The notes: generated from the sequence alone by a model not told the origin. A DNA stretch of 64,000 nucleotides from Barthelona sp. PCE (GCA_040285745.1 JAUFOR010000001.1:806001-870000), one strand, 5' to 3'; shown: positions 10,150 through 61,000, counted from the stretch's first letter. Numbers and translations: made by a program.

Positions 10150-11876
10150 TTAGATGACAGCGACAATATCATCAATCTTAAGAATGGCATTAACAAGCTC
10201 GGTAGCGAGGGTTAAAGCACTTGTGTTGACCAAGAGAGGCTGAAGAATATCCAGCGATCTCATGTCGACAATCTCACCACTGTCACAGTTAATACCAGCA
10301 TAAGTGATACCTTCGTTGTGGGCAGCACGTAACTCAGTAACGACCTTGATGGCGTCAAGACCAGAGTTCTCAGCCAAAGTGGTAGGGATGATCTCGAGGG
10401 CATCGGAATAAGCTCTCATACAATGAGAGAGAACACCTGTAACCTCCTTCGACTTCTTGTACAAACGGAGGGCACACTCTGTTTCTGGGACACCACCACC
10501 GGGGAGAAGGAAAGGCTTCTTGATGAGGGCACGCATAACGCAGAGAGCATCGTGCAATGAACGCTCGGCTTCATCAAGCATGAGTTCGTTAGAACCACGA
10601 CAGAGAATAGAACAAGTGTGACCAGAGACACGAGGATGGTGACATCCTGTGATCTCGATGATAGAACCGCCCTCGATTGGCTTCTGAACAACGAGCTCGG
10701 CTGTACCCAACTTCTCAGGGGTGAAGTAAGAAATATCAGCTGTAGGAAGAGCGCCGGTAGCCTTTGAGATGAACTCCATCTCGCGACGATCAATGTCTCT
10801 GATGACCATGATCTTGGCCTTGCGAAGGTAGTGAAGTGCCAGGTCAGAAACAGGGTCACGAAGGGTCGACTTCTGGATTAAAAGAACGTTACACTTCGTT
10901 TTCTTGATTCTCTTGATCAGGGATCGAATGTAGTCACGTTCTTGTCTAAAGGCGCGGTCCATGGCCTCCTCGTCAGCAACGATAACAGACTGATCCATGT
11001 CGGTCTTAGGGGGGGAAAGACAGAACTGAATGAGACCAATCTTGGCGTTCTCGATACGAGAGGGTCCACCACGCATGGCGTGAGCAGCAACAACACCCTT
11101 GGAATCAGTGAGGGTGTTGGCAAAGATCAAACCATCAATGAAGTGAGTATCAGCAACAGTGGCACCAATCTTCTTGACAACACGGATGTTTGTAAGATCA
11201 ACGTTATCAACGAGGGCGGGGTCAACAATGGAGTTGACAGCACGAACGGCAATGGGAGCCAAGACGTCGGCGTATTGAGATACAATCTTTGACTGGAGAG
11301 ATGTTACAGCATTCTTCATCAGAACAGATTGATCAGTCAGATCAACGGGCAAAGCAATCTCGTTCAGGATCTTGACGGACTCAGCAAGACACTTCTGGAA
11401 TGATTGTGAGATCTGATTGGCGTGAATACCCTTCTCAAGAAGAACAAGTGCGGCTTCAAGCAGGGCACCAGCGAGTACAACAACGGATGTGGTACCATCA
11501 CCGGCTTCACTGTCTTGTGCCTTAGAGATATCAATAAGCATCTGAGCAGCAGGATGTGTAATTTGCAGGTTCTTCATGATGGTAGCACCATCATTGGAAA
11601 TAAGAACATCCTTATTCTCGTCCTAAGAGTGAGTTTATCAATGTAAAATAGCTATAAAGTAACATACAACAATCATCTTATCCATACCACGAGGACCAAG
11701 AGATGATCGAACTAAGTCGCAGATCTGCTTAGCATGCTTAATGTTGGACAGACGAACGTCCTTCTCTTTCTCCTAAATATAAGTAAAGTGTACATTCAGT
11801 TGACGCAAAATGCGAACGACGCTATCCATACAGTTTCAATGAGTGTCTCACCCTTTCGATATGTTGCAGAGCTCAT
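10150..11876 (-). CDS. CCT4: T-complex protein 1 subunit delta (CCT4), 3 exons: 11876-11832, 11772-11668, 11622-10150 (540 aa)
   Basis: GDGTTSV motif and CCT4-type [17 protein letters not shown]. Removing two phase-0 GT-AG introns restores the N-terminal DVRLSNI...[30 protein letters not shown]. Confidence 0.95.
11623..11667 (-). other. Spliceosomal intron 2 of CCT4 (45 nt)
   Basis: GTATGT...ACTCACTCTTAG; joins conserved MDKMIV to [12 protein letters not shown]. Confidence 0.92.
11773..11831 (-). other. Spliceosomal intron 1 of CCT4 (59 nt)
   Basis: GTATGG...ACTTATATTTAG; contains an in-frame stop; splicing restores the frame. Confidence 0.85.
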
Positions 11877-12092: not shown

Positions 12093-13244
12093 ATGAACGG
12101 CAGCATTGGGGCTAATCTTTCGTCTTCGTTTGCGAATCTTACAACAACAGACGCCAACGGTGTACCACACAGTTTCTCATCTTTTAGTGAGAATATGGAC
12201 TCAACATTCGTTGAAACCATGCAGAATAATCATAAGAAAAGACTTGTAGGCATAATGGAGCAAAACAACAGTCTTTTAGAGGAGAAAAATCGTGAAATTG
12301 CAGAGCTACAACAGCAGCTTCAATCACAACACGATGATGCGTTACAGCGCGAGGCGCTCCTCCGTGCGGAGTTCCAGAACCTACGCCAATTGCATGCGGA
12401 TCAAATGAATGATCAGCAGCTAATTTTTGATCAAGAACGTGAGAAACAGATGGAAATCGAGGCAGAGCTTAAGGAACAGTACGAAAGCAGCATCGAGTTG
12501 CTTAAAAAGAGCCATGAGGAGCAGCTGCTAGCCATTGAAAATGATATTCAACATAACTTGCAACAACAAGAAATTGCAAAACAAGATATTCTCAAGGATG
12601 AGTTAACAAAACAGCATAGTATGGATCAACGGTTCCAAAACAGTATGGTCCAGATGCGCAACAGTCATTTGGATGTGATCAAGAGATATAAGGGAACTAT
12701 CAAACAAGAACAATTACTGAACAGCGAGCTGAGGGAAGAAATTTGTACACTTACTTTGAATAAGAACAATGAAGTAATGTTATTAAACAACGAGTTGAAG
12801 GATATGAAGCGTAAATATAATAATTTAGATGGTCAATATAAGAAAGAAATGAAGACTTTGCATGAACGTACTCTATCGTTCCAAAATGATATGGAAGGAG
12901 TCCAAAGACAGTTTTCTGGGAAGCTTAGGACTGAACGAAACAACTATGCAAGTGAGATTAAGAGATTAAATAACACAATCAGAACACTAAGGATGAATTT
13001 GGAGGAAAAAGAAAAATTGTATCAACGCAGAATTAAATCTAATGCTAGTGAAGTAGCTTCACTGAATGCCACGCTTATTAAGGCACAAACAGAGCTGTCA
13101 AATATTAGAGATACCCAGACCATGAGCAGTTTGGCAAAACACGAACTGCATCTTGCGCAAAGCGATCGATTGAGACTTACACATGAATTAGCTGCAAGTA
13201 GACGCGATGCCAACAGATACAGCAACTTTATATATGGTCGATAA
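12093..13244 (+). CDS. Hypothetical coiled-coil protein
   Basis: 383-aa ORF, Q/E/L-rich heptad pattern through most of its length. Confidence 0.65.
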   Translation: MNGSIGANLSSSFANLTTTDANGVPHSFSSFSENMDSTFVETMQNNHKKRLVGIMEQNNSLLEEKNREIAELQQQLQSQHDDALQREALLRAEFQNLRQLHADQMNDQQLIFDQEREKQMEIEAELKEQYESSIELLKKSHEEQLLAIENDIQHNLQQQEIAKQDILKDELTKQHSMDQRFQNSMVQMRNSHLDVIKRYKGTIKQEQLLNSELREEICTLTLNKNNEVMLLNNELKDMKRKYNNLDGQYKKEMKTLHERTLSFQNDMEGVQRQFSGKLRTERNNYASEIKRLNNTIRTLRMNLEEKEKLYQRRIKSNASEVASLNATLIKAQTELSNIRDTQTMSSLAKHELHLAQSDRLRLTHELAASRRDANRYSNFIYGR

Positions 13245-30828: not shown

Positions 30829-32513
30829 ATGCCCGCTGGTTTATTAGCCGAAAAGAGTCCGGAGGAGCAGTACAATGAGTTAGACCAACGCTACCAATTG
30901 CTAGGTATGAATTTTGTGGAGGTAACCTCTTTTTTCGAAATTGAGCACTTTTTTAACGCGTTTGACGGCCCACGTGCCGCCAACACGTACCCCACAGATA
31001 CGCATGATAACACTTACATTTAGAAGCCGATAGAAAAGCGTATTATGAAACTTCCACAGCAATCTTAAAGGCAAACGAGAAGCTCATTCGTCAACTTAAG
31101 CAGACAAACAAGCAGCTCGGAGGATCATTGCTTGAGAAGAAGAAGTCTCGAGGCAGCGCTGAATCACGCGAAGAAGCGCTCGATTCTCAGATTAGCCGTG
31201 CTAGTGATAATCTATATCGCCAAAAGTCAAAGGTCGATCAGTTAAAACATCATAAGGCTGAATTAAAGAAGCTTATTAACGAGAAGAGGTCTGACCTGGC
31301 ATTAATTCAAAGACAAACACAACAGAACACCGAGAATGGTGAGGTTAATCCACTTAACGACCGCCTGCGCAAGCTCGAGACAGAACTCGACAGCGTTATT
31401 CTGAAATTGAACGATTGTAGACAGCTTTTCAGTACCTATAAGGCCATTTTTAACAAGCTTCAAGAGGAGCGCCTCACGTACGAGAACTCCACAGAGAAGC
31501 TAGAGGGTCTTGTCAAGACTAAGGAGATCGAGATGGATGAATTGCAGTTGATGCACTCTGGAGCAATCTTTGCAAAGGAAAATGCTCACAAGGAGTTGGT
31601 AAACTTCATAGAACAAGCCAACGTGGAGCGGGAGCAGCGTAACGCCATGCTTTCATCACGTAGGCAGATGGTTGAGAAGCGTATGCAGATCACTCAAAAG
31701 ATGGAGTTACGAGAGAAATTACGTCGCGACAAGGAAAAGACTGCCAAAAACTCTGATGAAATGGACGAGCTTGACATTGCACTCGCAGGTGTTGAGGGAC
31801 AGAGCAATAACGACTCATTGATGAAGATTGATAGCTTCGAAGAGGGTTTCCGTAAGATCAAGGAGGCTACAGGTGTCTCTGAAGTGAACGAGATCATTGA
31901 GAAGTTCCTTTCTCAGGATGAAACCACGATTCACCTTAACAAACTTATTGAAAAAGCCAAGGAGAAGTTGGAGAATCTCAAATCCGAATATGAACGATTA
32001 CGCACAAGGGCTGACCGTCTTCGCTTTGCCGATTCAGGTGTTGCCGCTGAGCGTGCCCAGATCTCAGAACTGCAGCAGAAATTGTCAGAAACAAACTCCA
32101 CTGTTGATCAGACCAAGACTGTGCTTAAAACGTTGGAGCAAACCACAGTCACTGTTCGTTCTGTTATCTCATCGTTGCGCTCACGTGCATCAACTATTGC
32201 GTCAAATATGTCACTGCCACCACCGTCTGACTCTCATCCCATTGTTGATATTGCTTCACTCGTTGTTAAGGTATCTTCATCCATTGGACAAAAGACGGTT
32301 GCTGCTCAGGAAGACCTGTCAGAGATCACAATGGCTCTGCAGGAGGAGGATAGCGAAGAGGAAGAGGATAGCGAGGAAGAGGAAGACTATGAAGTTGAGA
32401 AGATCCTTGATCGACAGACACTGAAGAAGCAAGCCCAAGATATTCTTAGTAGAAACCAAGGTGCCGGTGAGAAGGGTGCTGTCTCACATGGTATGCGCTC
32501 TAGTGATATGTAA
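30829..32513 (+). CDS. CCDC151: Outer dynein arm docking complex protein CCDC151/ODAD3-like; exons 30829-30904 and 31024-32513 (521 aa)
   Basis: Splicing gives LDQRYQLLEADRKAYYETS, like the CCDC151 LEGDRKAFxExS motif; also FRKIKEATGVSEVNEIIEKFLSQ; long coiled coil. Confidence 0.8.
30905..31023 (+). other. Spliceosomal intron of the CCDC151-like gene (119 nt, phase 1)
   Basis: AG|GTATGA...ACTTACATTTAG|; splicing restores the frame and conserved motif. Confidence 0.88.
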
Positions 32514-34238: not shown

Positions 34239-35556
34239 TTAAGCAGAGGGAGCGCCAACAGCGTAGACACTTCCGAGGAAGCTGGCATCAGCCTGAACGA
34301 TGAAGTTGGAAGTGGAGATGTTTCCAGCACTGTAGATGGGGTACATGGTGTAGTCACCGCTAGCGTAGGACTCACCCATCTCAGAGGTCTTGGAACCGTA
34401 ACCGGATCTGGTGGTCTTGAGGGTCTTCTTGGTCTTGACGGCACCGGAGGCGGTGGTCTTCCAGGAAGTAACGAGGGCACCAGTGGTGGTCTCAAGGCTT
34501 AGAAGGGAGTTGGCAGGGGTGGCGGAGAAGCCGAAAACCTGGGAACCGAAAGTGGTCTTGGAGTAAGCCTTGGTGGGGCTGGCGGCCATACCGGAAACAT
34601 CGAGATCCTTGAAGACGACGGAAGTACCATCGTTGTCAATGTTATCGAACATCATATCGTCACCCTTGAAGGTGTTCTTCTCGACATCAATGTGAAGGTA
34701 GGTGGTGGCGAGACCAGTAACTTCACCGTTGTTGTTGCCAGAGAAAGCATCGAAGAAAGACTTACCGTTGACGTGGAAGAGGTCAAGGACACGGGAAGAA
34801 GTTAACTGAAGTTCGAGACCGAGGACGGTACAGTCGGTGTAGATATCCTGAGTAGAATCGGTACCAGTGAAGGTAAGGACGTTAGTGACGGAAGCACCGT
34901 GGAAAGACTTGGTAGTGGTGGTGGTAGTGAGGAGTTCAGCGAGGGTGCTGTTCTTGGTAGACTTGACATACATCTTGTATCGGTTGGTGGTACCAACAGT
35001 GACCTTGACATCAACGGCGTTACCATCGAGCCAGATACCGTTAACAGTATTATCAAGAGCAGTCCAGGAAGGGGTGTTAATAGTCTTAGCATTCTGACAC
35101 TGAAGGATCTTGCTGGAAGAACCAACGAAGACAATAATAAGGATGATGACAATAATACAACAACAACAGCCGCAAGCAGAACCCTTGGCCTTCTTGGATT
35201 GCTTGAAACGACCCCAGTAAGCTTGTTGGCCACCCATAGGCTGCATGGGCTGAGCCATGGGCTGTTGACCCATAGGAGCGCCGTAGCCGGGTTGAGGCTG
35301 AGCCATCATTTGAGGAGCGGGCTGCATCATACCCATTTGGGGGTTTCCGTATCCAGGTTGAGCATAACCTTGGTTAGTAGGTTGTCCGTACCTAAATATT
35401 AGAATTAAACGTCTAGATTGTTTCAAAATAGAACGCAAACAACAATATATTCAAATAAAAAACAAAAATATTACAACTGCTCAATTGAACAATTGTAACA
35501 TCACATCCTTTGTTGTTTATGATGTTGCGCGACTATCATTGACGAAAAACATACAT
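34239..35556 (-). CDS. Type II membrane protein: G/Q/P/M-rich N-terminus, Cys cluster plus TM, Ser/Thr-rich ectodomain; exons 35556-35555 (AT) and 35391-34239
   Basis: YGQPTNQGYAQPGYG..., ACGCCCCIIVIILIIVFV; strong codon bias. An ATG start is available through AT|G splicing. Confidence 0.75.
35392..35554 (-). other. Spliceosomal intron (163 nt) interrupting the start codon
   Basis: ...ctaAT|GTATGT...TCTAATATTTAG|G TAC GGA CAA. Confidence 0.75.
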
Positions 35557-40953: not shown

Positions 40954-41429
40954 AAAGGAATCAACCTAATAATATGCACAACCACAAAGATATAAAAGAT
41001 AACTATTGGGAAGGAAAGTACGTGATAAGCGGGAAGGAGTGCTAAACCAAAAGAAAAGACACTAATAGCACCAGAAGCAGATGTTGTATAGAATTGTCTC
41101 TTATATTTAGGATTATCAATGCTTTCTTTCTTGATCACGTTCACGTACACCGTAAGGCCAACAAAACCGATAATAAAAAGTGTAAAACTGAACCACGCAC
41201 AATACCACCAAAAATCCCATACCTTATGATCAATAAAGACTTTTTGCTTGATCTCAAAGTACTTATATACTATGTACCCCACAATAATCCAAAGAATATC
41301 AATAACAGCGAGCTTTACCGTTTCGGTAACCTCAACTTTTTTCAAATCGCGATCCTCAATGGCTGCACTTGCGTATATGGTTTGTGGATCTTTGTCCAAA
41401 ATCCTTTTACGAACGGTTGTATCAGACAT
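40950..41429 (-). CDS. Four-TM membrane protein, TMEM128-like
   Basis: Four hydrophobic helices; GLALLPAYHVLSFPI resembles TMEM128 ALWPVWxFxT. Confidence 0.55.
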   Translation of the reverse strand: MSDTTVRKRILDKDPQTIYASAAIEDRDLKKVEVTETVKLAVIDILWIIVGYIVYKYFEIKQKVFIDHKVWDFWWYCAWFSFTLFIIGFVGLTVYVNVIKKESIDNPKYKRQFYTTSASGAISVFSFGLALLPAYHVLSFPIVIFYIFVVVHIIRLIPF

Positions 41430-41483
41430 TGAACTATAGAAGTTGATTTAACTTTTGCACATTCTTTAAGCACATTTTTTAAT

Positions 41484-43061
41484 ATGGAGGAGATCAACCA
41501 AATTTTCTTCAGATCCCTTGCGAGCGTGGGCATTCCTGTTCCTTCTCATGTTCAAACAGTAGCAGATATTGATGCTTCGTCCTTTGTCAGTCTCATTTCA
41601 TCGGTAGGAAAGAAGGTGCAGCCTCCCCTGGCGACACCAGAGGTGCTTCCCAATCAAATGTCAAAGCGATTCAAGATATGCAGCTTTGTAGCTGAAACAA
41701 TTAGTGATCTTGGTTATCCTAGCAAAATTGACTTCAACAACCTCATGTATCCACAACCTGAGGTGGTTCAGTCAGTTTTAAACTTCTTAATCGGCCTTAT
41801 TCCAAAGAAACAGCAAGTAGCTGAGGAAATTCAACCTTTGAAGGCAATTATTTCTGATTTCAAGAAGATTCCATATGCACTCCCCTGCTTTCTCCCAAAA
41901 AAACGTTCCCACGATGCTCTCATTAGGTACAAGTTCCCCAACTACAAACACAAGATATGCGTTGAACGTGTTTCCACAAAGCATCGACCTGCCGTTGACA
42001 CAATGAAGCGTGTGCTCAGGAAAGGCTTCAACGCGAAGAATCAGCGTAATGTTCTCGAGTTAATCAACTTCAAGTCGAGCTTCAACCGCTTTTCGCAGTT
42101 ACAAGATTTCGACATCCAGGTCACAAATGAGATACAATCCCAGTCGCAGGAGGAGCATATGCGCGAGCTTGAGGAGGAGATTCAGATGAAGAAGATGAAT
42201 TTGAAGAAGAACAAGGATCAGATTGATGATTTGCAGCTTGAGTTAGCTGAATTAAGGGAAGATATTATTGCAGTTGAGCAAGAACGTCTAGAGAAGGCTG
42301 GAGACCTGGAGATGTACAGAGACGTTGTTGAAATGATGGAGGACCCTGAGGTGGCCAAAAGGAAAATGGATAAACTTTACAAGAAGGCAAACGACAGTAT
42401 CGACAAGGTGGATTCGTACTGGCAGGAGACTTTTGCGCCTAAAAAGGAGGAATGTGATACATTGGAGCAACAGAACAAGGTCAATATGGATATTATTAGC
42501 GAGAAAGAAGCATATCTCAAGGAGTTGAGAGAGAAGCAAAACGATTTAATTAGAAAGACAAAGGAAAAGGAGACGTTAAAGAGTTTGCTGAAGCGTGAGT
42601 GGGATGCAACGGATAAGGGTGAGAACAGATCATTCTACTGTGAGAGAATCTATGAATTACACAAGTCCATTGAGAAGCAAAGAGGTGAAATCAAAAAGAT
42701 TTCCTTAGACATTACAATCGCAGATAAGGCCATCAAGAAGTGCTTGGATAACCTTAAGATCGCCGAGGGGGCGCTGGAGCAGGCAATTTTCAGACACGCG
42801 AAACGCGGGAAGTCAGAGGATCAGCAGTTATACAAGACTTTTGTTGACGTCCATTATACATGCAGGAAGCTTCTTGAAACTGTAGAGCAGCAGTCGAGAT
42901 TAGAAACCACGATTAAAAAACACCAGGTTATTATTGAGCGTCAAGAACGCATTGTTAATGCACTTCCAATAGAAAAGTTGAGCAAAGATTACTCATCCAT
43001 CAAGAAGGAGAACTCCAAGCTCAAGAAGCAGATCCACAAGTTGCGTAGTCAGCAAGAATAA
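41484..43061 (+). CDS. CCDC22: CCDC22 (CCC/Commander complex)
   Basis: MEEINQIFFRSL..VG..VP...LPNQMSKRFK...LGY...NLMYP N-terminal domain; RSFYCERI.E..KSIEKQ..EI.KI. Confidence 0.85.
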   Translation: MEEINQIFFRSLASVGIPVPSHVQTVADIDASSFVSLISSVGKKVQPPLATPEVLPNQMSKRFKICSFVAETISDLGYPSKIDFNNLMYPQPEVVQSVLNFLIGLIPKKQQVAEEIQPLKAIISDFKKIPYALPCFLPKKRSHDALIRYKFPNYKHKICVERVSTKHRPAVDTMKRVLRKGFNAKNQRNVLELINFKSSFNRFSQLQDFDIQVTNEIQSQSQEEHMRELEEEIQMKKMNLKKNKDQIDDLQLELAELREDIIAVEQERLEKAGDLEMYRDVVEMMEDPEVAKRKMDKLYKKANDSIDKVDSYWQETFAPKKEECDTLEQQNKVNMDIISEKEAYLKELREKQNDLIRKTKEKETLKSLLKREWDATDKGENRSFYCERIYELHKSIEKQRGEIKKISLDITIADKAIKKCLDNLKIAEGALEQAIFRHAKRGKSEDQQLYKTFVDVHYTCRKLLETVEQQSRLETTIKKHQVIIERQERIVNALPIEKLSKDYSSIKKENSKLKKQIHKLRSQQE

Positions 43062-46207: not shown

Positions 46208-48007
46208 ATGCCTAGATCCAAAACTGTAGTGTCTAAAAACTTCACATTTACATCATTTTGTAACTTAGTTGTTGTTACTGACATAATTAATGAATTTCAA
46301 CAAGAACAACCGCTCAGCATCATAGATAAGCGAAGTGATTTGATCTTACATGGTCCTCCAGTTGATGATTCTCTTCTGAGCGGATATGAGAAATGGAGTA
46401 TGCTAAAACCTTCTTTATTGGATCCATCCATCTTTTACCGCACCATACACATGCCAAGTGGATCTATTCTTGAACTGTTTAAATTCTTTGAGGGATCATT
46501 TGTCTTTTTTAAACGGCTTGAATTATCTTTTTTCTTTTCTGGGTGTTTAATTGATCGTTTATATTTGGTAAATAGGAAAAGAATAGAATATATGAATTCA
46601 CAGATCGAAATATACAACATAGATACTGAGGATTCTGTGTTTTCTGATAATTTTGAAGTCAATCAGATAAATTGTATTGTTCAAGATGGAATTGTTTACG
46701 TTATTGGAGTTAATATGTACTCCTACAAGGCAGTTGCGTTGGTTTCTTTTACAAAAGATGATATACCATTTCTCAGCAAAACTTTTTTTGATATTGTAGC
46801 ACTAGATTGGACACCAGGCAACAATAGGTTTATCCTAAACAATGACAGAACCGTTATATGTGAACGACTTCTGAATTTGCAAAACTGTTCTGAAGTAGCA
46901 AAAGTTTTTGGTGTTTACATTCCACGACCAAGCTTCAAAGATCAATTTCATGATGTTTTTTGCCGGTGTTGGAACTTTATTAGCCTGGATAAAGAGATAT
47001 ACTGCACAGAGTATAATGAATATAGTGGAGATACAATTTTTTATCGTATTTGTAGACGTGATGTCATCAATTGTCTTTTTGTTTTAAGTAATTGCACTGA
47101 TATTTTCTCTCATGTTAGATACCCGATGTCGTTAAAAAGGGTCCCTGTACTGTTTAACTGGTTTAATCAATCCATAATACTTCTGAAACCATCAACAGTT
47201 TTTGATAATGAAGCTTTCATTGCCACCACAAAATTTTATGATATTACTGCTCAAAAATGGTCTATATGTTTTATAATCGAAGCCACTGATGAGTTTAAGC
47301 TGTATGTTAATAATGAAACACCAATATTCCATTTCCCAAACAGAATATTCAAGCACATTTCACTCAATCTCAACCATATCGCTGTCATATATAGCACTTT
47401 TGGGGATAGTTGTGCGGTCATAAACCGTAATTTTGTTGTTGAAAACGTTCAAAAAGTAGAAATTGTAGGTGATCGCGCTTGGCTCATTGAAAACAACAGT
47501 GTTCTCAAAATGTTGATGTTACATCACGAGACTGGTCACGTTACCAACTCAGTAGAGCACATTTTACTCTGGTGTGTGCAGCAAATGATCGTAAATCCGT
47601 ACTGCCAAGACGAGTGTGTTATCACATGCAGCACTGGTTCTCTTTATGTGCGTTTCAACCCTGTTTCCGATTCACTCGATTGTGTTGAAATCAAATGCTG
47701 TGGTGTGGTGTGCTTCATTGACGAAGGCATGCTGCTAAGCGGTTACAAAGCGTATAGATTCTGCAATGAAATCGAAGAATGGGTAATTCCTTCTACCTTT
47801 GTTGAAGGCAAGCGTTTTTCGCCTGAACCAGGTGTAGTGGCTGAGTGCAGGTATATAAAGGGGTTTCAGGGAACATTAAGAACCTTAACCTTTTGCAATC
47901 ATACGTGCAGTTTTAGTGTTACAGAGCGGAACTTAGATGTTGTTAATTTTCTTTCAAAATGTGATGTGTCATTCACATTCTCTTCATTTGGTAAGTTTAA
48001 ATTGTAA
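46208..48007 (+). CDS. Hypothetical beta-rich protein, probably lineage-specific
   Basis: 599-aa ORF, F/I/V/C-rich, AT-rich codons; no recognised motif. Confidence 0.6.
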   Translation: MPRSKTVVSKNFTFTSFCNLVVVTDIINEFQQEQPLSIIDKRSDLILHGPPVDDSLLSGYEKWSMLKPSLLDPSIFYRTIHMPSGSILELFKFFEGSFVFFKRLELSFFFSGCLIDRLYLVNRKRIEYMNSQIEIYNIDTEDSVFSDNFEVNQINCIVQDGIVYVIGVNMYSYKAVALVSFTKDDIPFLSKTFFDIVALDWTPGNNRFILNNDRTVICERLLNLQNCSEVAKVFGVYIPRPSFKDQFHDVFCRCWNFISLDKEIYCTEYNEYSGDTIFYRICRRDVINCLFVLSNCTDIFSHVRYPMSLKRVPVLFNWFNQSIILLKPSTVFDNEAFIATTKFYDITAQKWSICFIIEATDEFKLYVNNETPIFHFPNRIFKHISLNLNHIAVIYSTFGDSCAVINRNFVVENVQKVEIVGDRAWLIENNSVLKMLMLHHETGHVTNSVEHILLWCVQQMIVNPYCQDECVITCSTGSLYVRFNPVSDSLDCVEIKCCGVVCFIDEGMLLSGYKAYRFCNEIEEWVIPSTFVEGKRFSPEPGVVAECRYIKGFQGTLRTLTFCNHTCSFSVTERNLDVVNFLSKCDVSFTFSSFGKFKL

Positions 48008-51538: not shown

Positions 51539-52618
51539 ATGGAAGGCATTGATGTTAGCGACTTCAAAGTTGGGCAGACATTTAATTTGGGCAAGAGGGA
51601 ACCTCCAAGAAAGGTACAGAAAGTGCAAGAAGTGATTCCTATTGTTCGCGAGTTTGTGAGTGTTGAAGAGCTGAATCCACCCATCAATAAGGAAACTGCA
51701 GCACTAAAGCTTGATGCTATTATCGCACCCAATCTTGAAGCTGTTTTTTCACAACTAACAAGTGTGAAACCTTTTTGGTCAACTCCCCTACCCAATGTCA
51801 ACAGTACTGTTCACATTCCACAGTGCACTCTTGATGATAAACAGAGTTTAGCTGTCGAGAGTAAGTTTTACAAAACGAAGCGAGAGCGAAAGCGTGAACG
51901 TCGAGAACGTCGTAAAGCTGATCAGTTGCAGCGATTGCGCGAGGAAAGGCTAGGTATACGCCCAAAGAACATGAAAAGGCAGCAAAAACAGACTCGTGGG
52001 TACTTGACGAGTGCGGATATGGTGAATCCGACTTATTTACATTCCAGTGTTGTGGGATCGAAGTTGGAAACAGGCGTAGTCACGAGGAAAGAGATAAGCA
52101 GGACAGCAAAGAAGAAGAAAGCAAAGAAAAAGGTTGCGAAAAAATTTGATAAACGTGAGTTATGTTGCCAAGTTTATCAATTACCCAAGGTACGCATGCA
52201 GAAGATCATCTTTAACATCCAAAAGAAAGCGTTACATAAATGGGTAACTGGGTTTTTGTTGTTGAACAATGGCAAAACATATCCGGATTTTCTGTTCTTA
52301 GAAGGAAGAAAGAAGGACGTAAGGCACATTACCAACTATATAGAGAACCATCTTTCGGATACAACGTCAAAAATAAGCGATGTAGAGCGTGGTGTTTGTC
52401 ATAAAGGTGAGTGGGACTTGAAACGAGTCTTTAGTACTGTACGCAAAAGTCCATCGTTTAAATACAACATGCCGCAGCAGAAGCACAATCGCAGTCGCAA
52501 ATCTAGTGTTGCTGTGCGTTGGTGCGAAAATGATAATTGCACCAGTCAAATAATTCATGGTTTCAACAGATATGACTCAATTCTAATGATGTACAAGCAG
52601 TACTCGGTCAAGAGTTGA
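51539..52618 (+). CDS. PRP3: Divergent U4/U6 snRNP protein PRP3-like
   Basis: KTKRERKRERR.RR.....E.RLG..P and C-terminal VY......FNI...A...VTG......LEG..K resemble PRPF3. Confidence 0.6.
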   Translation: MEGIDVSDFKVGQTFNLGKREPPRKVQKVQEVIPIVREFVSVEELNPPINKETAALKLDAIIAPNLEAVFSQLTSVKPFWSTPLPNVNSTVHIPQCTLDDKQSLAVESKFYKTKRERKRERRERRKADQLQRLREERLGIRPKNMKRQQKQTRGYLTSADMVNPTYLHSSVVGSKLETGVVTRKEISRTAKKKKAKKKVAKKFDKRELCCQVYQLPKVRMQKIIFNIQKKALHKWVTGFLLLNNGKTYPDFLFLEGRKKDVRHITNYIENHLSDTTSKISDVERGVCHKGEWDLKRVFSTVRKSPSFKYNMPQQKHNRSRKSSVAVRWCENDNCTSQIIHGFNRYDSILMMYKQYSVKS

Positions 52619-53450
52619 CCCAGTTCGTTGCGTATCGTTTCAATCTGTTAAAAACATCGGTGATCAAGACTAAAACTCGGCCTTCGCTTGATTTAAGGGA
52701 ATAGTTTATGACCAGGCCTAATACAATAACATACATCGTCATCACAATGGTCACGGACGAGTATTGCATAGAGAAGTCGGGATGTATTGTTTGCAGCGAA
52801 AACGTTGCCGAGAATTTTCTTTTAAATTCGTTATATACGACAAAAAGCTCTCCTGAATCACCCACAGGGAGATATCGCTCACTGGCCTTGAGCAGAGGGA
52901 AGAAATCGTTTGTGAAGACTTTTTTTTTCGAAGAAACAAGGAAATCAGTTTCGTTATAGATAACAGTTGTATGTACTCCATTTCTAATGATGCTTGGCGG
53001 TTTAGCCCGCACTGAGTCGTGTAAAACTTGAAATACAATGCCTTCATGGGAGATTTCAAACAGTAAAACGAGACTTTCTTGATCTAGTAAGAATTGTGGA
53101 AGCATTCGACCAGTCAGACGGAAAACGAGCTGATTAATATCCTGTACACATGAAGTGAAGTCTGGGTCGAAAAGGAAATTAATGTTGCGTGTTTTTATGA
53201 CGGGTTTGGTAGAAAATATGTATAATTCACGTAAATCCCTTGATTCAAACCCTTTGTCAGTTGTGATAAATAGGCCCTGTGGACATCTGTTTGTATCGAA
53301 TGTTGAAATACAACCAAATAGTGGGGGTAAAATTAGTAAGTTAGGATTTGTGTTGAAGTTAAGCTTGAAAGTCGCTTCTGACGGAATAAGATCAAGAGCA
53401 GCGGTGCATGTTAAGGCACAAAATACTACAAAAATAAGAAAAGAGTACAT
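52608..53450 (-). CDS. Short PIG-T/Gpi16-like GPI transamidase subunit (tentative)
   Basis: Signal peptide; PDFSMQYS followed by a TM helix matches the PIG-T PDFSMPYNV-TM signature. Confidence 0.5.
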   Translation of the reverse strand: MYSFLIFVVFCALTCTAALDLIPSEATFKLNFNTNPNLLILPPLFGCISTFDTNRCPQGLFITTDKGFESRDLRELYIFSTKPVIKTRNINFLFDPDFTSCVQDINQLVFRLTGRMLPQFLLDQESLVLLFEISHEGIVFQVLHDSVRAKPPSIIRNGVHTTVIYNETDFLVSSKKKVFTNDFFPLLKASERYLPVGDSGELFVVYNEFKRKFSATFSLQTIHPDFSMQYSSVTIVMTMYVIVLGLVINYSLKSSEGRVLVLITDVFNRLKRYATNWVNS

Positions 53451-53834
53451 ATTTCGGAAAACAGATCATTTAACCTCTAGTCGATAGTATTATTCAATGA
53501 GCATGTTCAATATTCACGGATAGAACAGTTCACAATCGTATCAAGAGTTTTAGTGAGGTAACGCTTAACAGGTTGAATCATTTGGATGTTAGGTATTTTT
53601 GAATGTGATCCTTATGGGTTAACGTTAAAATGTCACCGCTGGAACGTGTTAAACAATCAATAATGCTGCATATGATTATTTTTCTTTTTTTCAGCACGTA
53701 TTAAAAATTTTAAGGTTCTTCAACATGTATTAATTGTGTAATTTGTAGCCAAACTGTCATTCATACATAAGAATCATGTATAATAAACTCAGAGTAGCTC
53801 CTTTTCTTATTTTTACTTCTTTTAACTCTTGCAA

Positions 53835-54573
53835 ATGTATGCTTCACTCCACAGCCACGTGGTACTGGTAAAGAACTAACACTAAGGCAAATTTTCGTCA
53901 AGACACTCACTGGCGTATGTTTTTAGCAAATTGGATCATGAGAAGATATTCTTTGGAATTGGGACAGCTATTTTAGCTGGAAACATTGGCAACAGCTGCT
54001 GGTTAGGGGAGTACAACTCAGAATCAAGAAAGCTTGGGGTTTAGTAGTAATCTCGATGCATCTTCGTTTTTGTGTCACTTGGAAGCCCCAAACACTTTGC
54101 AAAGGTATAACGTGGGGTCTCCAATATCCAAAAGTCTGTGTACAGTTGTGTCCATCCATTTTTTATTTTTTCTCGACGTACAATGATTTTCGCTTTATTC
54201 TAACACCTAGAAGACCATTGCCATCACTTGTGAGCAGAATGAGAGCATCACTTCTGTTAAGCAAAAGATTTCTGCCAAGGAAGGTATTCCTGCCGATCAG
54301 CAGCGTCTCATCTACTCTGGTAAGCAGCTCGATGAGGGCCGCACCCTTGCCGATTACGGTATTCAGAAGGAGGCTACTCTCCATCTCGTCCTTAGACTGA
54401 GAGGTGGTGCTAACGATATTCTTCCCGCTTTGGAAGCTCTTGCTGCCAAGTACAAGTGGCACAAGAAGATTTGCCGTCGTTGTTACTCTCGCAATCCATT
54501 AAACGCCACTCGTTGTCGCAAGAAGAAGTGCAGATGCCCCGACCTTCGTTTGAAGAAGATCCCCGCTGCTTAA
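53835..54573 (+). CDS. UBA52: Ubiquitin-ribosomal protein eL40 fusion; exons 53835-53836 (AT), 53887-53914, 54211-54573 (130 aa)
   Basis: Missed by ORF track. Spliced product [13 protein letters not shown]...[52 protein letters not shown]...LRLKK. Confidence 0.95.
53837..53886 (+). other. Intron 1 of Ub-eL40 (50 nt), splitting the start codon
   Basis: caaAT|GTATGC...ACTAACACTAAG|G CAA ATT TTC GTC AAG. Confidence 0.88.
53915..54210 (+). other. Intron 2 of Ub-eL40 (296 nt)
   Basis: GGC|GTATGT...TCTAACACCTAG|AAG ACC ATT joins TLTG to KTI. Confidence 0.93.
54034..54097 (+). ncRNA. Candidate intron-encoded H/ACA-like guide RNA hairpin
   Basis: Stem TTGGGGTTT/AAGCCCCAA, internal loop, short upper stem, then ACA at 54092-54094. 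Confidence 0.4.
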
Positions 54574-54800
54574 TTGGTTAGCGTAACCGCCTTTAGAGTA
54601 AACTGAAGACGTATTAAGTCGTTTGTTATTGTCGCCTGCTTCATTCTTTGAGTTTTTCAAAAGAAGCATTTCTAACACATTGAACAATTTGTACCCTTTC
54701 TGGACACAAATGTGAAGATTTTCATGCATTTACTTGATCATAAAGCACCAAAAATGTGGTTGAAAATTTGTTATTCTGTTTTCCCCTTATTTCATCAACC

Positions 54801-55490
54801 ATGGATAGAAGTCGATACATTGACGTCGAAACTAACATCAGAAACAAGCTGGAGAACATCCAGGAGGCTATCAGGAGGATTTCTCGTTCAACCAGAGCTG
54901 CACAGATCAGTCAAATGCAATCCCGTATTCCTCGAATTATTAATGAGTGTGAGACGCTACTTCGCGACTCCCGTACTCTTTTCTCACAAGAGGGATGTGA
55001 GCAGAACCACAGCCAATTTTTCCAATTGCTCAGCGACTATAAAGGACAATGGGATCGTGAACTTACGTCTGCCACACGTCGTCTCGGCGTTGGAGAAAAC
55101 GGAAGAGTGGCCAATAATGAAGCTGCAAAAGCTGAGGCTGAACGCATTAGGCAACAGGCAATGATTAGCAACGAGGCTCAGAACGTCAGTCAGATGGTGA
55201 ATAACCGTAATAAGGAGATCACTGAGTTTGTCAGAGACCTTGGTGTCGTACAAGATACCATGCGTGATCTTTCAGAAGCAATTTCTACAAATGATGTGGG
55301 AATTGAAAGTCTACAAGACAACGTAGATGAGGCTGTTGTGTTTATTGAACGTGGTAATAGAGATCTTGTCACATCTGAAGGCAAACAACGTGGCAATCGT
55401 TCACGCCTGTGCTGCTTTTTTCTCATAACTCTAGTTTGTGCTCTCCTTGTTGTTTATATCTTATTGAAGAAACTGAAGGTTATGAAGTAA
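54801..55490 (+). CDS. Qa-SNARE syntaxin (possibly endosomal syntaxin-7/12-like)
   Basis: Helical N-terminus; SNARE motif RNKEI.......V...MRDL...I......IESL.DNV..A...IE.G...L; CC then a C-terminal TM. Confidence 0.8.
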   Translation: MDRSRYIDVETNIRNKLENIQEAIRRISRSTRAAQISQMQSRIPRIINECETLLRDSRTLFSQEGCEQNHSQFFQLLSDYKGQWDRELTSATRRLGVGENGRVANNEAAKAEAERIRQQAMISNEAQNVSQMVNNRNKEITEFVRDLGVVQDTMRDLSEAISTNDVGIESLQDNVDEAVVFIERGNRDLVTSEGKQRGNRSRLCCFFLITLVCALLVVYILLKKLKVMK

Positions 55491-60239: not shown

Positions 60240-61000
60240 TTACTCCTCTTCAACCTGCTCCTGCTCGACTTCAGCGGGGGCATCGACTTCCTCGACACCA
60301 GGCTGCTCGAGTTCCTCAGCAACTTCCTCACCTTCAGTGGGTTGAGCAGCAATACGCTCGCGTTGGGACTTGGCCATCTTTCTGGACATGAACAATTGAG
60401 GGATAACAAGGAGCAAGGGGAAGATCTTGGACATAACCTTCTTCATGGGGCCCTGGGGAAGAGGTCTCTTGGCGGCAGAAACGGACTTGTGGAGCTCACC
60501 ATCATAGATGAAAGCGGAGAAAGCGCTGGGACCGTTGGCGGCGATTCTGACAAAGCCCTTACCCATAGCAGTGGAGGAAATCTTAACCTTGTTGAAGGTA
60601 TCAGCGAAGTTAATAGTGAACAGTTCGGTCTTCTTACCATCCATCTCATCAGAAACAAAGACAACACCCTCAGTCTTGGTGTCGAGCTCGATCTCAACGT
60701 ACTTGACATCTTCGTAAATACCGGTGTTGTTGAAGAAGAATCTTCCACTCAAAGTCTCGTTTGTCTTAACAATTTCAAGTGTGTAGACCTTGCAGGCTTC
60801 GCTCTCGATCTCACAGATCTCGAGGTCCCATGTGCTAGGTGTTAGAAGTTAATAATATCGGGGAAAATTACATGCGCTGGTAACACGTTGAATAAGTTGA
60901 AAGCGGGCTGTCTGGACTTGCCTGCTCCACCCAAACCGGGTAAAAAGGCGTTAGCGGAGGCGACGTAAGCCAAAAGAACTAAAACAAAGACGATCTTCAT
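60240..61000 (-). CDS. Hypothetical signal-peptide/membrane protein; exons 61000-60876 and 60834-60240 (239 aa)
   Basis: MKIVFVLVLLAYVASANA signal peptide joins the downstream ORF through a 41-nt GC-AG intron; hydrophobic segment then acidic tail. Confidence 0.7.
60835..60875 (-). other. GC-AG intron (41 nt, phase 2)
   Basis: GC|GCATGT...TCTAACACCTAG|C; the only consensus-like donor I found in the required phase. Confidence 0.7.

Follow-up and report, generated by a model that had tools for sequence, protein, structure and literature searches.

Evidence that an intron probably interrupts the start codon of the ubiquitin-eL40 gene of the metamonad Barthelona sp. PCE

The 64,000-nucleotide (nt) stretch of Barthelona sp. 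PCE DNA considered here (GCA_040285745.1, JAUFOR010000001.1:806001-870000), referred to below as the window and numbered from its first letter, contains a gene for ubiquitin fused to the ribosomal protein eL40 in which the start codon appears to be interrupted by an intron. Barthelona sp. PCE, a free-living member of the BaSk clade of metamonads, has 10.2 Mbp of DNA and 5064 predicted proteins (PMC11316075), and its genome has been reported as the smallest of a free-living eukaryote. The product of the third exon of the gene (Table 1) matches the Pfam families PF00240 (ubiquitin; E 8.6e-23, 80.3 bits, cut-off 25.4) and PF01020 (Ribosomal_L40e; E 3.1e-16, 59.5 bits, cut-off 23). The ubiquitin part ends in RLRGG and is followed by a 54-residue eL40 tail with CxxC and C-x4-C cysteine patterns, and the codon-usage score of this exon, +0.344 bits per codon, is the best of the six frames. 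In exon 2, the G at 53887 is followed by CAA ATT TTC GTC AAG (QIFVK). This frame extends back through 30 sense codons to the nearest stop, and because none of them is ATG the coding sequence has no contiguous start. The initial annotation had pointed to the sequence AT/GTATGC (the slash marking the splice site), to 50 nt of intervening DNA, and to a G-CAA-ATT-TTC with no adjacent AT, and every base of this description is found in place.

Joining the three coding segments of Table 1 gives a sequence of 393 nt, which is divisible by 3, has a single, terminal stop, and encodes 130 residues. The precursor begins with MQIFVK under the proposed splice only, whereas in the deposited model QIFVK is preceded by a 91-residue extension. 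The intervening 50 nt carry both a GTATG 5' splice site and a 12-nt acceptor motif of the kind described below, and no GTATG other than that at 53837 is present in the 600 nt that precede the acceptor at 53886. The unspliced sequence also reads ATG at 53835, in another frame, as had been noted in the initial annotation; this frame runs for 14 codons and then meets a stop. It is therefore highly probable, as judged from the sequence, that a 50-nt intron lies between the T and the G of the ubiquitin-eL40 start codon (junction 53836^53887), and a split start of the AT/G form is the best-supported model for this gene and very probably correct.

Table 1. Ubiquitin-eL40 gene and other features of the window. 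T20 is the number of T residues in the best 20-nt window of the 45 nt upstream of an ATG; ORF, open reading frame.
Feature	Position	Strand	Description	Basis
T-rich tract, presumed promoter-proximal region or short 5' leader of exon 1	53790-53834	+	T20 = 15	
Exon 1, coding part	53835-53836	+	AT, the sole coding bases of exon 1 and first two bases of the predicted start codon	Sequence
Intron 1 (predicted)	53837-53886	+	50 nt, GT...AG; 5' splice site GTATGCT at 53837-53843; fused branch/3' motif ACTAACACTAAG at 53875-53886	Signals common to other introns of the window; splicing predicted
Exon 2	53887-53914	+	28 nt; G completing ATG, then nine codons, QIFVKTLTG	Stretch also in deposited protein
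Intron 2	53915-54210	+	296 nt; GTATGTT ... TCTAACACCTAG	Deposited model uses same intron (tblastn)
Exon 3	54211-54573	+	Ubiquitin residues 11-76, 54-residue eL40 part, stop TAA at 54571-54573	Pfam, codon usage
First exon of PCE1_004696, judged spurious	52708-52947	+	Donor GTTTCG; antisense to minus-strand ORF	
280-codon ORF (285 codons as 52608-53465), divergent from ubiquitin-eL40	52611-53450	-	Codon score +0.085	Best of six frames
Second AT/G candidate	35391-35556	-	AT 35556-35555; intron 35554-35392, 163 nt, GTATGTT ... TCTAATATTTAG; G 35391 in frame with ORF to 34242	Candidate only
CCT4 intron iA	11831-11773	-	59 nt; GTATGGA ... ACTTATATTTAG	Deposited 540-residue CCT4, tblastn
CCT4 intron iB	11667-11623	-	45 nt; GTATGTT ... 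ACTCACTCTTAG	Deposited 540-residue CCT4, tblastn
ODAD1 intron 1	30905-31023		119 nt; GTATGAA ... ACTTACATTTAG; preceded by ATG and 25 codons, followed by 495-codon ORF	ORF layout
Seventh acceptor, behind signal-peptide first exon	60835 (gene 60835-61000)	-	TCTAACACCTAG; 50-nt intron	Sole phase-correct donor GTTACC

The signals of intron 1 can be compared with those of every intron that is definable in the window, a set comprising six introns with a defined donor and seven acceptors. All six donors are GTATG (two in CCT4, one in ODAD1, two in ubiquitin-eL40, and that of the candidate at 35554), and each of the seven acceptors has a 12-mer in which positions 2-3 are CT, position 5 is A, and the last two bases are AG. 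Counts of these motifs were set against shuffles, with expectations taken over 128,000 strand positions, i.e. the two strands of the window. The pattern CTAACAC-N1-3-AG occurs 3 times against 1.27 expected, a number reached in 14 of 100 shuffles, and ATGTATG occurs 17 times against 9.27 expected, reached in 2 of 100. Pairs of GTATG with a loose 12-mer number 16, compared with 10.2 +/- 3.7 in Markov simulations. The 3' motif by itself is not enriched in the window by the shuffle test, so the case rests on position and frame rather than on motif counts: the shuffle expectations give, by simple arithmetic, a chance of about 3e-7 that a 3' motif ends exactly one base ahead of CAA and that an ATGTATG also lies 20-400 nt upstream. 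Two of the 17 ATGTATG sites are those of the two split-start candidates listed in Table 1.

The sequence preceding the proposed AT resembles that of a start. T20 was determined for 20 presumed starts, consisting of the first ATG of 23 long ORFs, less four (9648, 11577, 25951, and 31533) whose first ATG, at least 15 codons from the beginning of the ORF, is not the true start, plus the signal-peptide exon at 61000. Four others with the first ATG at 17-26 codons were kept, two of which are confirmed as deposited starts. The median T20 of these presumed starts, of which only 3 of 20 are confirmed as deposited starts, is 11 (range 7-14), compared with 8 for all 2393 ATGs of the window, and the value of 15 for the ATG at 53835 is reached by 0.9% of the latter. 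With the T-rich tract so close to 53835, the leader may be short. A tract rich in T or pyrimidines is present within about 45 nt upstream of most presumed starts, for example those at 12093, 43104, 46208, 50226, 55663, and 60058, and may be a promoter or leader element of the Barthelona genome.

The public protein of the locus, KAL0239005.1 (PCE1_004696), is a "hypothetical protein" of 220 residues; in an exhaustive search of representative sequences with the eL40 tail it was identical over all 63 query residues. Its exons, as located by tblastn, are 52708-52947, 53855-53914, and 54211-54570. The deposited model thus starts about 1.1 kb upstream with an exon of 80 codons, uses a 907-nt intron (52948-53854), reads the final 32 nt of the 50-nt intron as coding sequence for 11 residues, places a 91-residue extension before QIFVK, and replaces Met1 of ubiquitin by Arg. 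The initial annotation had predicted that ordinary gene finders would miss the gene, and in substance this is what happened, the deposited model using an upstream exon rather than the split start; it had also named an alternative upstream exon as the finding that would tell against its own reading, and it is therefore necessary to weigh the deposited structure with some care.

Several points speak for the deposited structure or weaken the case against it. It is the public annotation and comes from a pipeline in which RNA-seq-guided GeneMark-ET and AUGUSTUS predictions were checked with PASA (PMC11316075); since RNA-seq hints were used, the 907-nt intron could have read support. Codon usage over the 80 codons that it shares with the antisense ORF leaves the deposited first exon standing, with a weakly positive score of +4.9 bits against +9.4 for the ORF. 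The intron at 60835, for which GTTACC is the sole phase-correct donor, indicates that GTATG may not be obligatory and therefore weakens the argument against a GTTTCG donor, and the consensus itself is drawn from only six or seven introns of one 64-kb window, two of which are the candidates under test. Near 60835 there is also a GTAATT donor, in the wrong frame, so that this intron has either a non-GTATG donor or an assembly base error.

Against the deposited structure, its donor GTTTCG and its acceptor 12-mer TTCACTCCACAG, which has neither the CT of positions 2-3 nor the A of position 5, both depart from the intron signals of the window, and its 907-nt intron is three times as long as any other there (45-296 nt). 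The context of the start at 52708 is ordinary, with a T20 of 9 that is reached by 42% of the ATGs in the window. On the opposite strand, the region of the first exon falls inside a 285-codon ORF whose beginning resembles a signal peptide and whose frame has the highest codon score of the six. The 91-residue extension has no Pfam match, and eleven of its residues correspond to the 3' part of a perfectly formed 50-nt intron. Finally, among metagenome loci with a detectable QIFVK start, ATG stands directly before it in 31 of 35 and an open N-terminal extension in none of the 35. The deposited ubiquitin-eL40 model is consequently judged to be wrong, and a 220-residue protein that starts at 52708 is unlikely.

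The minus-strand ORF at 52611-53450 is probably a real gene that the deposited model has displaced. Its other five frames score between -0.17 and -0.75 per codon, and its product has a signal-peptide-like hydrophobic start and a hydrophobic stretch near the C terminus. The exact product is not present in the protein collection and has no Pfam match; its absence from the collection fits displacement by a chimeric model.

Other donors could serve the acceptor at 53886 while leaving the start codon in the AT/G form. The sites at 53725-26/GTATTA and 53776-77/GTATAA, both of which read ATGTAT, would produce a longer intron and an identical protein. However, GTATG is present at neither, their T20 values are 12 and 9 compared with 15 for 53835, and either would strand the ATG at 53835 inside the intron for no reason; the ATGs at 53725 and 53776 themselves open very short frames. 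Use of one of these donors in place of 53837 is very unlikely.

A further possibility is that the locus is a non-functional or unexpressed copy, with a working ubiquitin-eL40 gene located elsewhere, which would explain why the ubiquitin and eL40 parts are both unusually diverged: the ubiquitin part has 55-59 of 76 residues identical to five typical ubiquitins, and the eL40 tail is at most 68% identical to any of 1.84 billion representative sequences, the deposited protein aside. A word-indexed search with the tail among proteins of up to 210 residues returned three candidates and one match, at 57% identity. On the other hand, the three exons are open, both introns have intact signals, and the T-rich start context is the strongest in the window. 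The codon score of exon 3 is among the higher ones in the window. All seven lysines of ubiquitin are retained, together with L8, R42, I44, H68, V70, R72, R74, and G75-G76, i.e. the hydrophobic patch and the RGG end, as are the cysteines of the eL40 tail. The strongly coding codon usage of exon 3 and the retention of key ubiquitin residues indicate that this is not a decayed pseudogene, and the small genome, with its few predicted proteins, leaves scant room for a redundant copy; a dead or silent locus is very unlikely. It should be noted that such divergence of ubiquitin is unusual. In a metagenome protein of 127 residues (P0251) that is also an eL40 fusion, the ubiquitin-like part is barely recognizable, and strongly diverged ubiquitin on eL40 is therefore also found in other uncultured eukaryotes.

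The least probable alternative, an extremely unlikely one, is that the true first exon lies far off or on another transcript, joined through a long intron or by trans-splicing as for some introns of Giardia (PMC3916229), and that the AT at 53835 is coincidental, since a full donor preceded by AT in a start-like context stands 50 nt upstream of the acceptor, an arrangement with the very low chance probability given above, and no sign of trans-splicing was seen in the Barthelona lineage.

If the start codon is split as proposed, exon 1 of the ubiquitin-eL40 gene would add only a leader, apparently short, and the bases AU to the mRNA. Removal of a 50-nt spliceosomal intron of the metamonad type would join AU to G to form AUG-CAA-AUU, and the second intron would be spliced out after codon 10. 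The resulting mRNA would be translated into a 130-residue precursor, and cleavage after Gly76, as in other eukaryotes, would presumably release a rather diverged ubiquitin and a 54-residue zinc-ribbon eL40. In yeast, the ubiquitin part reportedly aids eL40 production (PMC6721733). From a transcript left unspliced, the AUG at 53835 would yield no more than a 14-codon peptide. The initial annotation went further and proposed that translation of this gene is gated by splicing. Any intron in a coding sequence must be removed before the protein can be made, and regulation is not indicated; of its interpretation, the AT/G intron structure is retained as the best supported on sequence evidence, but the gating and the implied rarity of the arrangement are not. 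Intron 2, at 296 nt, is far longer than the other introns of the window (45-163 nt). There is no hint that it hosts a small RNA: its fold z-score is -0.22 (+1.15 for the start region), and an Rfam search at E <= 1 over 52000-55000 gave one sub-threshold match to a CRISPR repeat and none within the introns.

The window contains a second candidate for an AT/G start, on the minus strand. Behind the proposed intron lies a 383-codon ORF with a Q/P/G-rich N terminus, which has no ATG in frame back to the preceding stop. Ahead of the first internal ATG (35336), the 18 codons that follow the acceptor are rich in Q, P, G, and Y and share a QPGYG motif with the downstream sequence, whereas the two other frames of this stretch encode unrelated sequence, one with a stop. 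Codon usage over the 18 codons is uninformative (-0.011 in frame against +0.221 in another frame). The T20 of the ATG at 35556 is 15, the same as that of the ubiquitin-eL40 start. None of nine versions of the product beginning at internal methionines is present in the protein collection, compared with all three plain-start controls (41484-43058, 54801-55487, and 46208-48004). Both split-start candidates have the strongest T-rich contexts in the window and neither has a simple model in the deposited proteome. First introns at coding offset 2 would be present in two of the five window genes with a definable first intron, both of these being candidates; in the others the offsets are about 45, 76, and 116. 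This is suggestive only. The presence of two candidates in 64 kb means that the split in ubiquitin-eL40 is perhaps not unique, and it is possible, although doubtful, that AT/GTATG introns splitting the start codon form a recurrent class in Barthelona sp. PCE. Two other arrangements were considered and rejected: an ATG/GTTTGT intron before CCDC22 (41380-41489), where the contiguous ATG at 41484 yields a product that is present in the protein collection, and an A/TG split before eIF5B (60243-60133), for which coding is implausible.

The window as a whole is compact and intron-poor, with 33 stop-to-stop ORFs of at least 200 codons, and its genes include those for cilium and CCC-complex proteins (ODAD1, CCDC22, and CCDC93). 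A 490-codon ORF (10150-11622, minus strand) is 100% identical to the deposited PCE1_004444. Pfam searches of the flanking ORFs gave nothing significant, the match of ORF 60243-60833 to DUF5618 having an E of 0.092 and 13.4 bits (cut-off 33).

The main value of these observations lies in the correction of an annotation and in a possible class of genes; the current understanding of splicing or translation is unchanged. In a reference genome of phylogenetic importance, the database entry for a core ribosomal and ubiquitin gene is a hypothetical protein of 220 residues, and the chimeric model probably also suppresses a neighboring gene. The same error is to be expected, wherever such an arrangement occurs, of any gene finder for which the first coding exon must contain an intact ATG. 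AUGUSTUS is not known to place an intron inside a start codon. If the class is recurrent, highly expressed genes would be systematically mis-modeled or missing, and their neighbors could be displaced. The predicted proteome of Barthelona sp. PCE is 55.4% complete by BUSCO (PMC11316075, Table 2), and split starts could contribute to this modest value. In the main text of the genome paper the word "intron" occurs once, in the Methods (PMC11316075), and the window offers a first look at the intron signals of Barthelona, GTATG together with a 3' 12-mer in fixed register.

Extreme 5' introns recur in the ubiquitin-eL40 gene. In Saccharomyces, RPL40A and RPL40B (UBI1 and UBI2) are interrupted after the eighth coding base; as in Barthelona, a ubiquitin-eL40 gene has a tiny first coding exon and an intron of the GTATGT type, but the yeast intron falls in codon 3 and leaves the start codon intact. 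A metagenome scan with the eL40 tail identified 51 loci, with tail identities of at most 66%. A contiguous stretch encoding QIFVK is present in 35, four of which lack a directly preceding ATG: two have an intron after ATGCAG (L020 and L034) and two are unclear (L017 and L027). Among the 16 loci without such a stretch, nine are truncated or could not be assigned, one (L011) is cut just upstream of exon 2, and one (L004) has an intron in the yeast-type position, ATGCAAAT/GTATGT. Five (L006, L010, L030, L031, and L049) share the arrangement ...A/GTRMGY ... YAG/TGCARAT/GT ... CAG/YTTCGT, in which the start codon is split as A/TG, the second exon is a 7-nt micro-exon (TGCARAT), and a further intron follows coding base 8.

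The five A/TG loci, putatively fungal to judge from their splice signals, therefore indicate that a split start already exists in the ubiquitin-eL40 family, one base away from that proposed in Barthelona. They differ from the Barthelona gene in the position of the split and of the second intron, which in the latter follows base 30, and also in having signals of the GTAAGT and CTRAC types with a separate branch point, unlike the fused motif of Barthelona. An AT/G acceptor was found in none of the 51 metagenome loci, and searches of word-indexed, representative, and metagenome sequences gave no ortholog from another Barthelona or from Skoliomonas. Among the 12 of 373 titles listed in a literature search, none was relevant to the A/TG arrangement in ubiquitin-eL40. 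The Barthelona case thus adds the AT/G position to a gene that has extreme 5' introns in several other lineages and, if the class proves recurrent, would, together with the fungus-like A/TG genes, point either to repeated settling of introns at or near the initiator codon or to ancient retention.

Outside this gene family, introns that interrupt or adjoin the initiator codon have been described in several organisms, so the rarity implied by the initial annotation was overstated. In Yarrowia lipolytica, the 5' splice site of 42 introns immediately follows one of the three bases of ATG, and these start-codon introns are associated with highly expressed genes and efficient splicing (PMC13309789); they resemble intron 1 of Barthelona in lying within the initiator codon but occur in a different organism and different genes. 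The vertebrate VAMP1 gene, in which the coding bases of exon 1 are AT only and an annotation tool failed (TOGA2 preprint, 10.64898/2026.06.30.735536), provides the exact AT/G form and a similar failure of annotation, again in another organism and gene. A phrase search of the literature for split or interrupted start codons returned no metamonad or ubiquitin-gene case. There is an excess of phase-0 introns directly after ATG, most notably among ribosomal protein genes (Nielsen and Wernersson 2006, PMC1626468), but these follow a complete ATG, whereas the Barthelona intron is one base earlier and its exon 1 contains no complete codon. Among metamonads, the median distance between the conventional introns of Giardia and the start codon is 61 bp (PMC10711314), and the diplomonad Spironucleus vortens, whose introns are 40-67 nt long, has a start codon intron in Rps4 (PMC6679479), which parallels intron 1 of the Barthelona gene: both introns are short and lie at the extreme 5' end of a ribosomal protein gene, in a metamonad with few introns.

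Published metamonad introns have a GTATGT-like 5' splice site and a fused branch and 3' motif, published as ACTAACACACAG in Trichomonas, VCTRACACRCAG in Giardia, and RCTAACAARHTAG in S. vortens, and in Trichomonas splicing is lost when the branch motif is displaced by 2 or 7 nt, so that the spacing is essential (PMC3916229, PMC6679479). The Barthelona introns are similar in being GT-AG introns with a GTATG-type 5' site and a 12-nt motif that places the branch A eight bases from the splice site, and ACTAACACTAAG agrees with the Trichomonas motif (PMC3916229) in 10 of 12 positions. The 12-mer of Barthelona is less strict: in the window its branch region is CTAAC, CTTAT, CTCAC, CTTAC, or CTAAT, and it ends in TAG or AAG rather than CAG. 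Through these signals the BaSk clade is linked in intron design to Trichomonas, Giardia, and Spironucleus, and the arrangement at the ubiquitin-eL40 start, which is rare but known, very probably adds a further case to the known class of split start codons.

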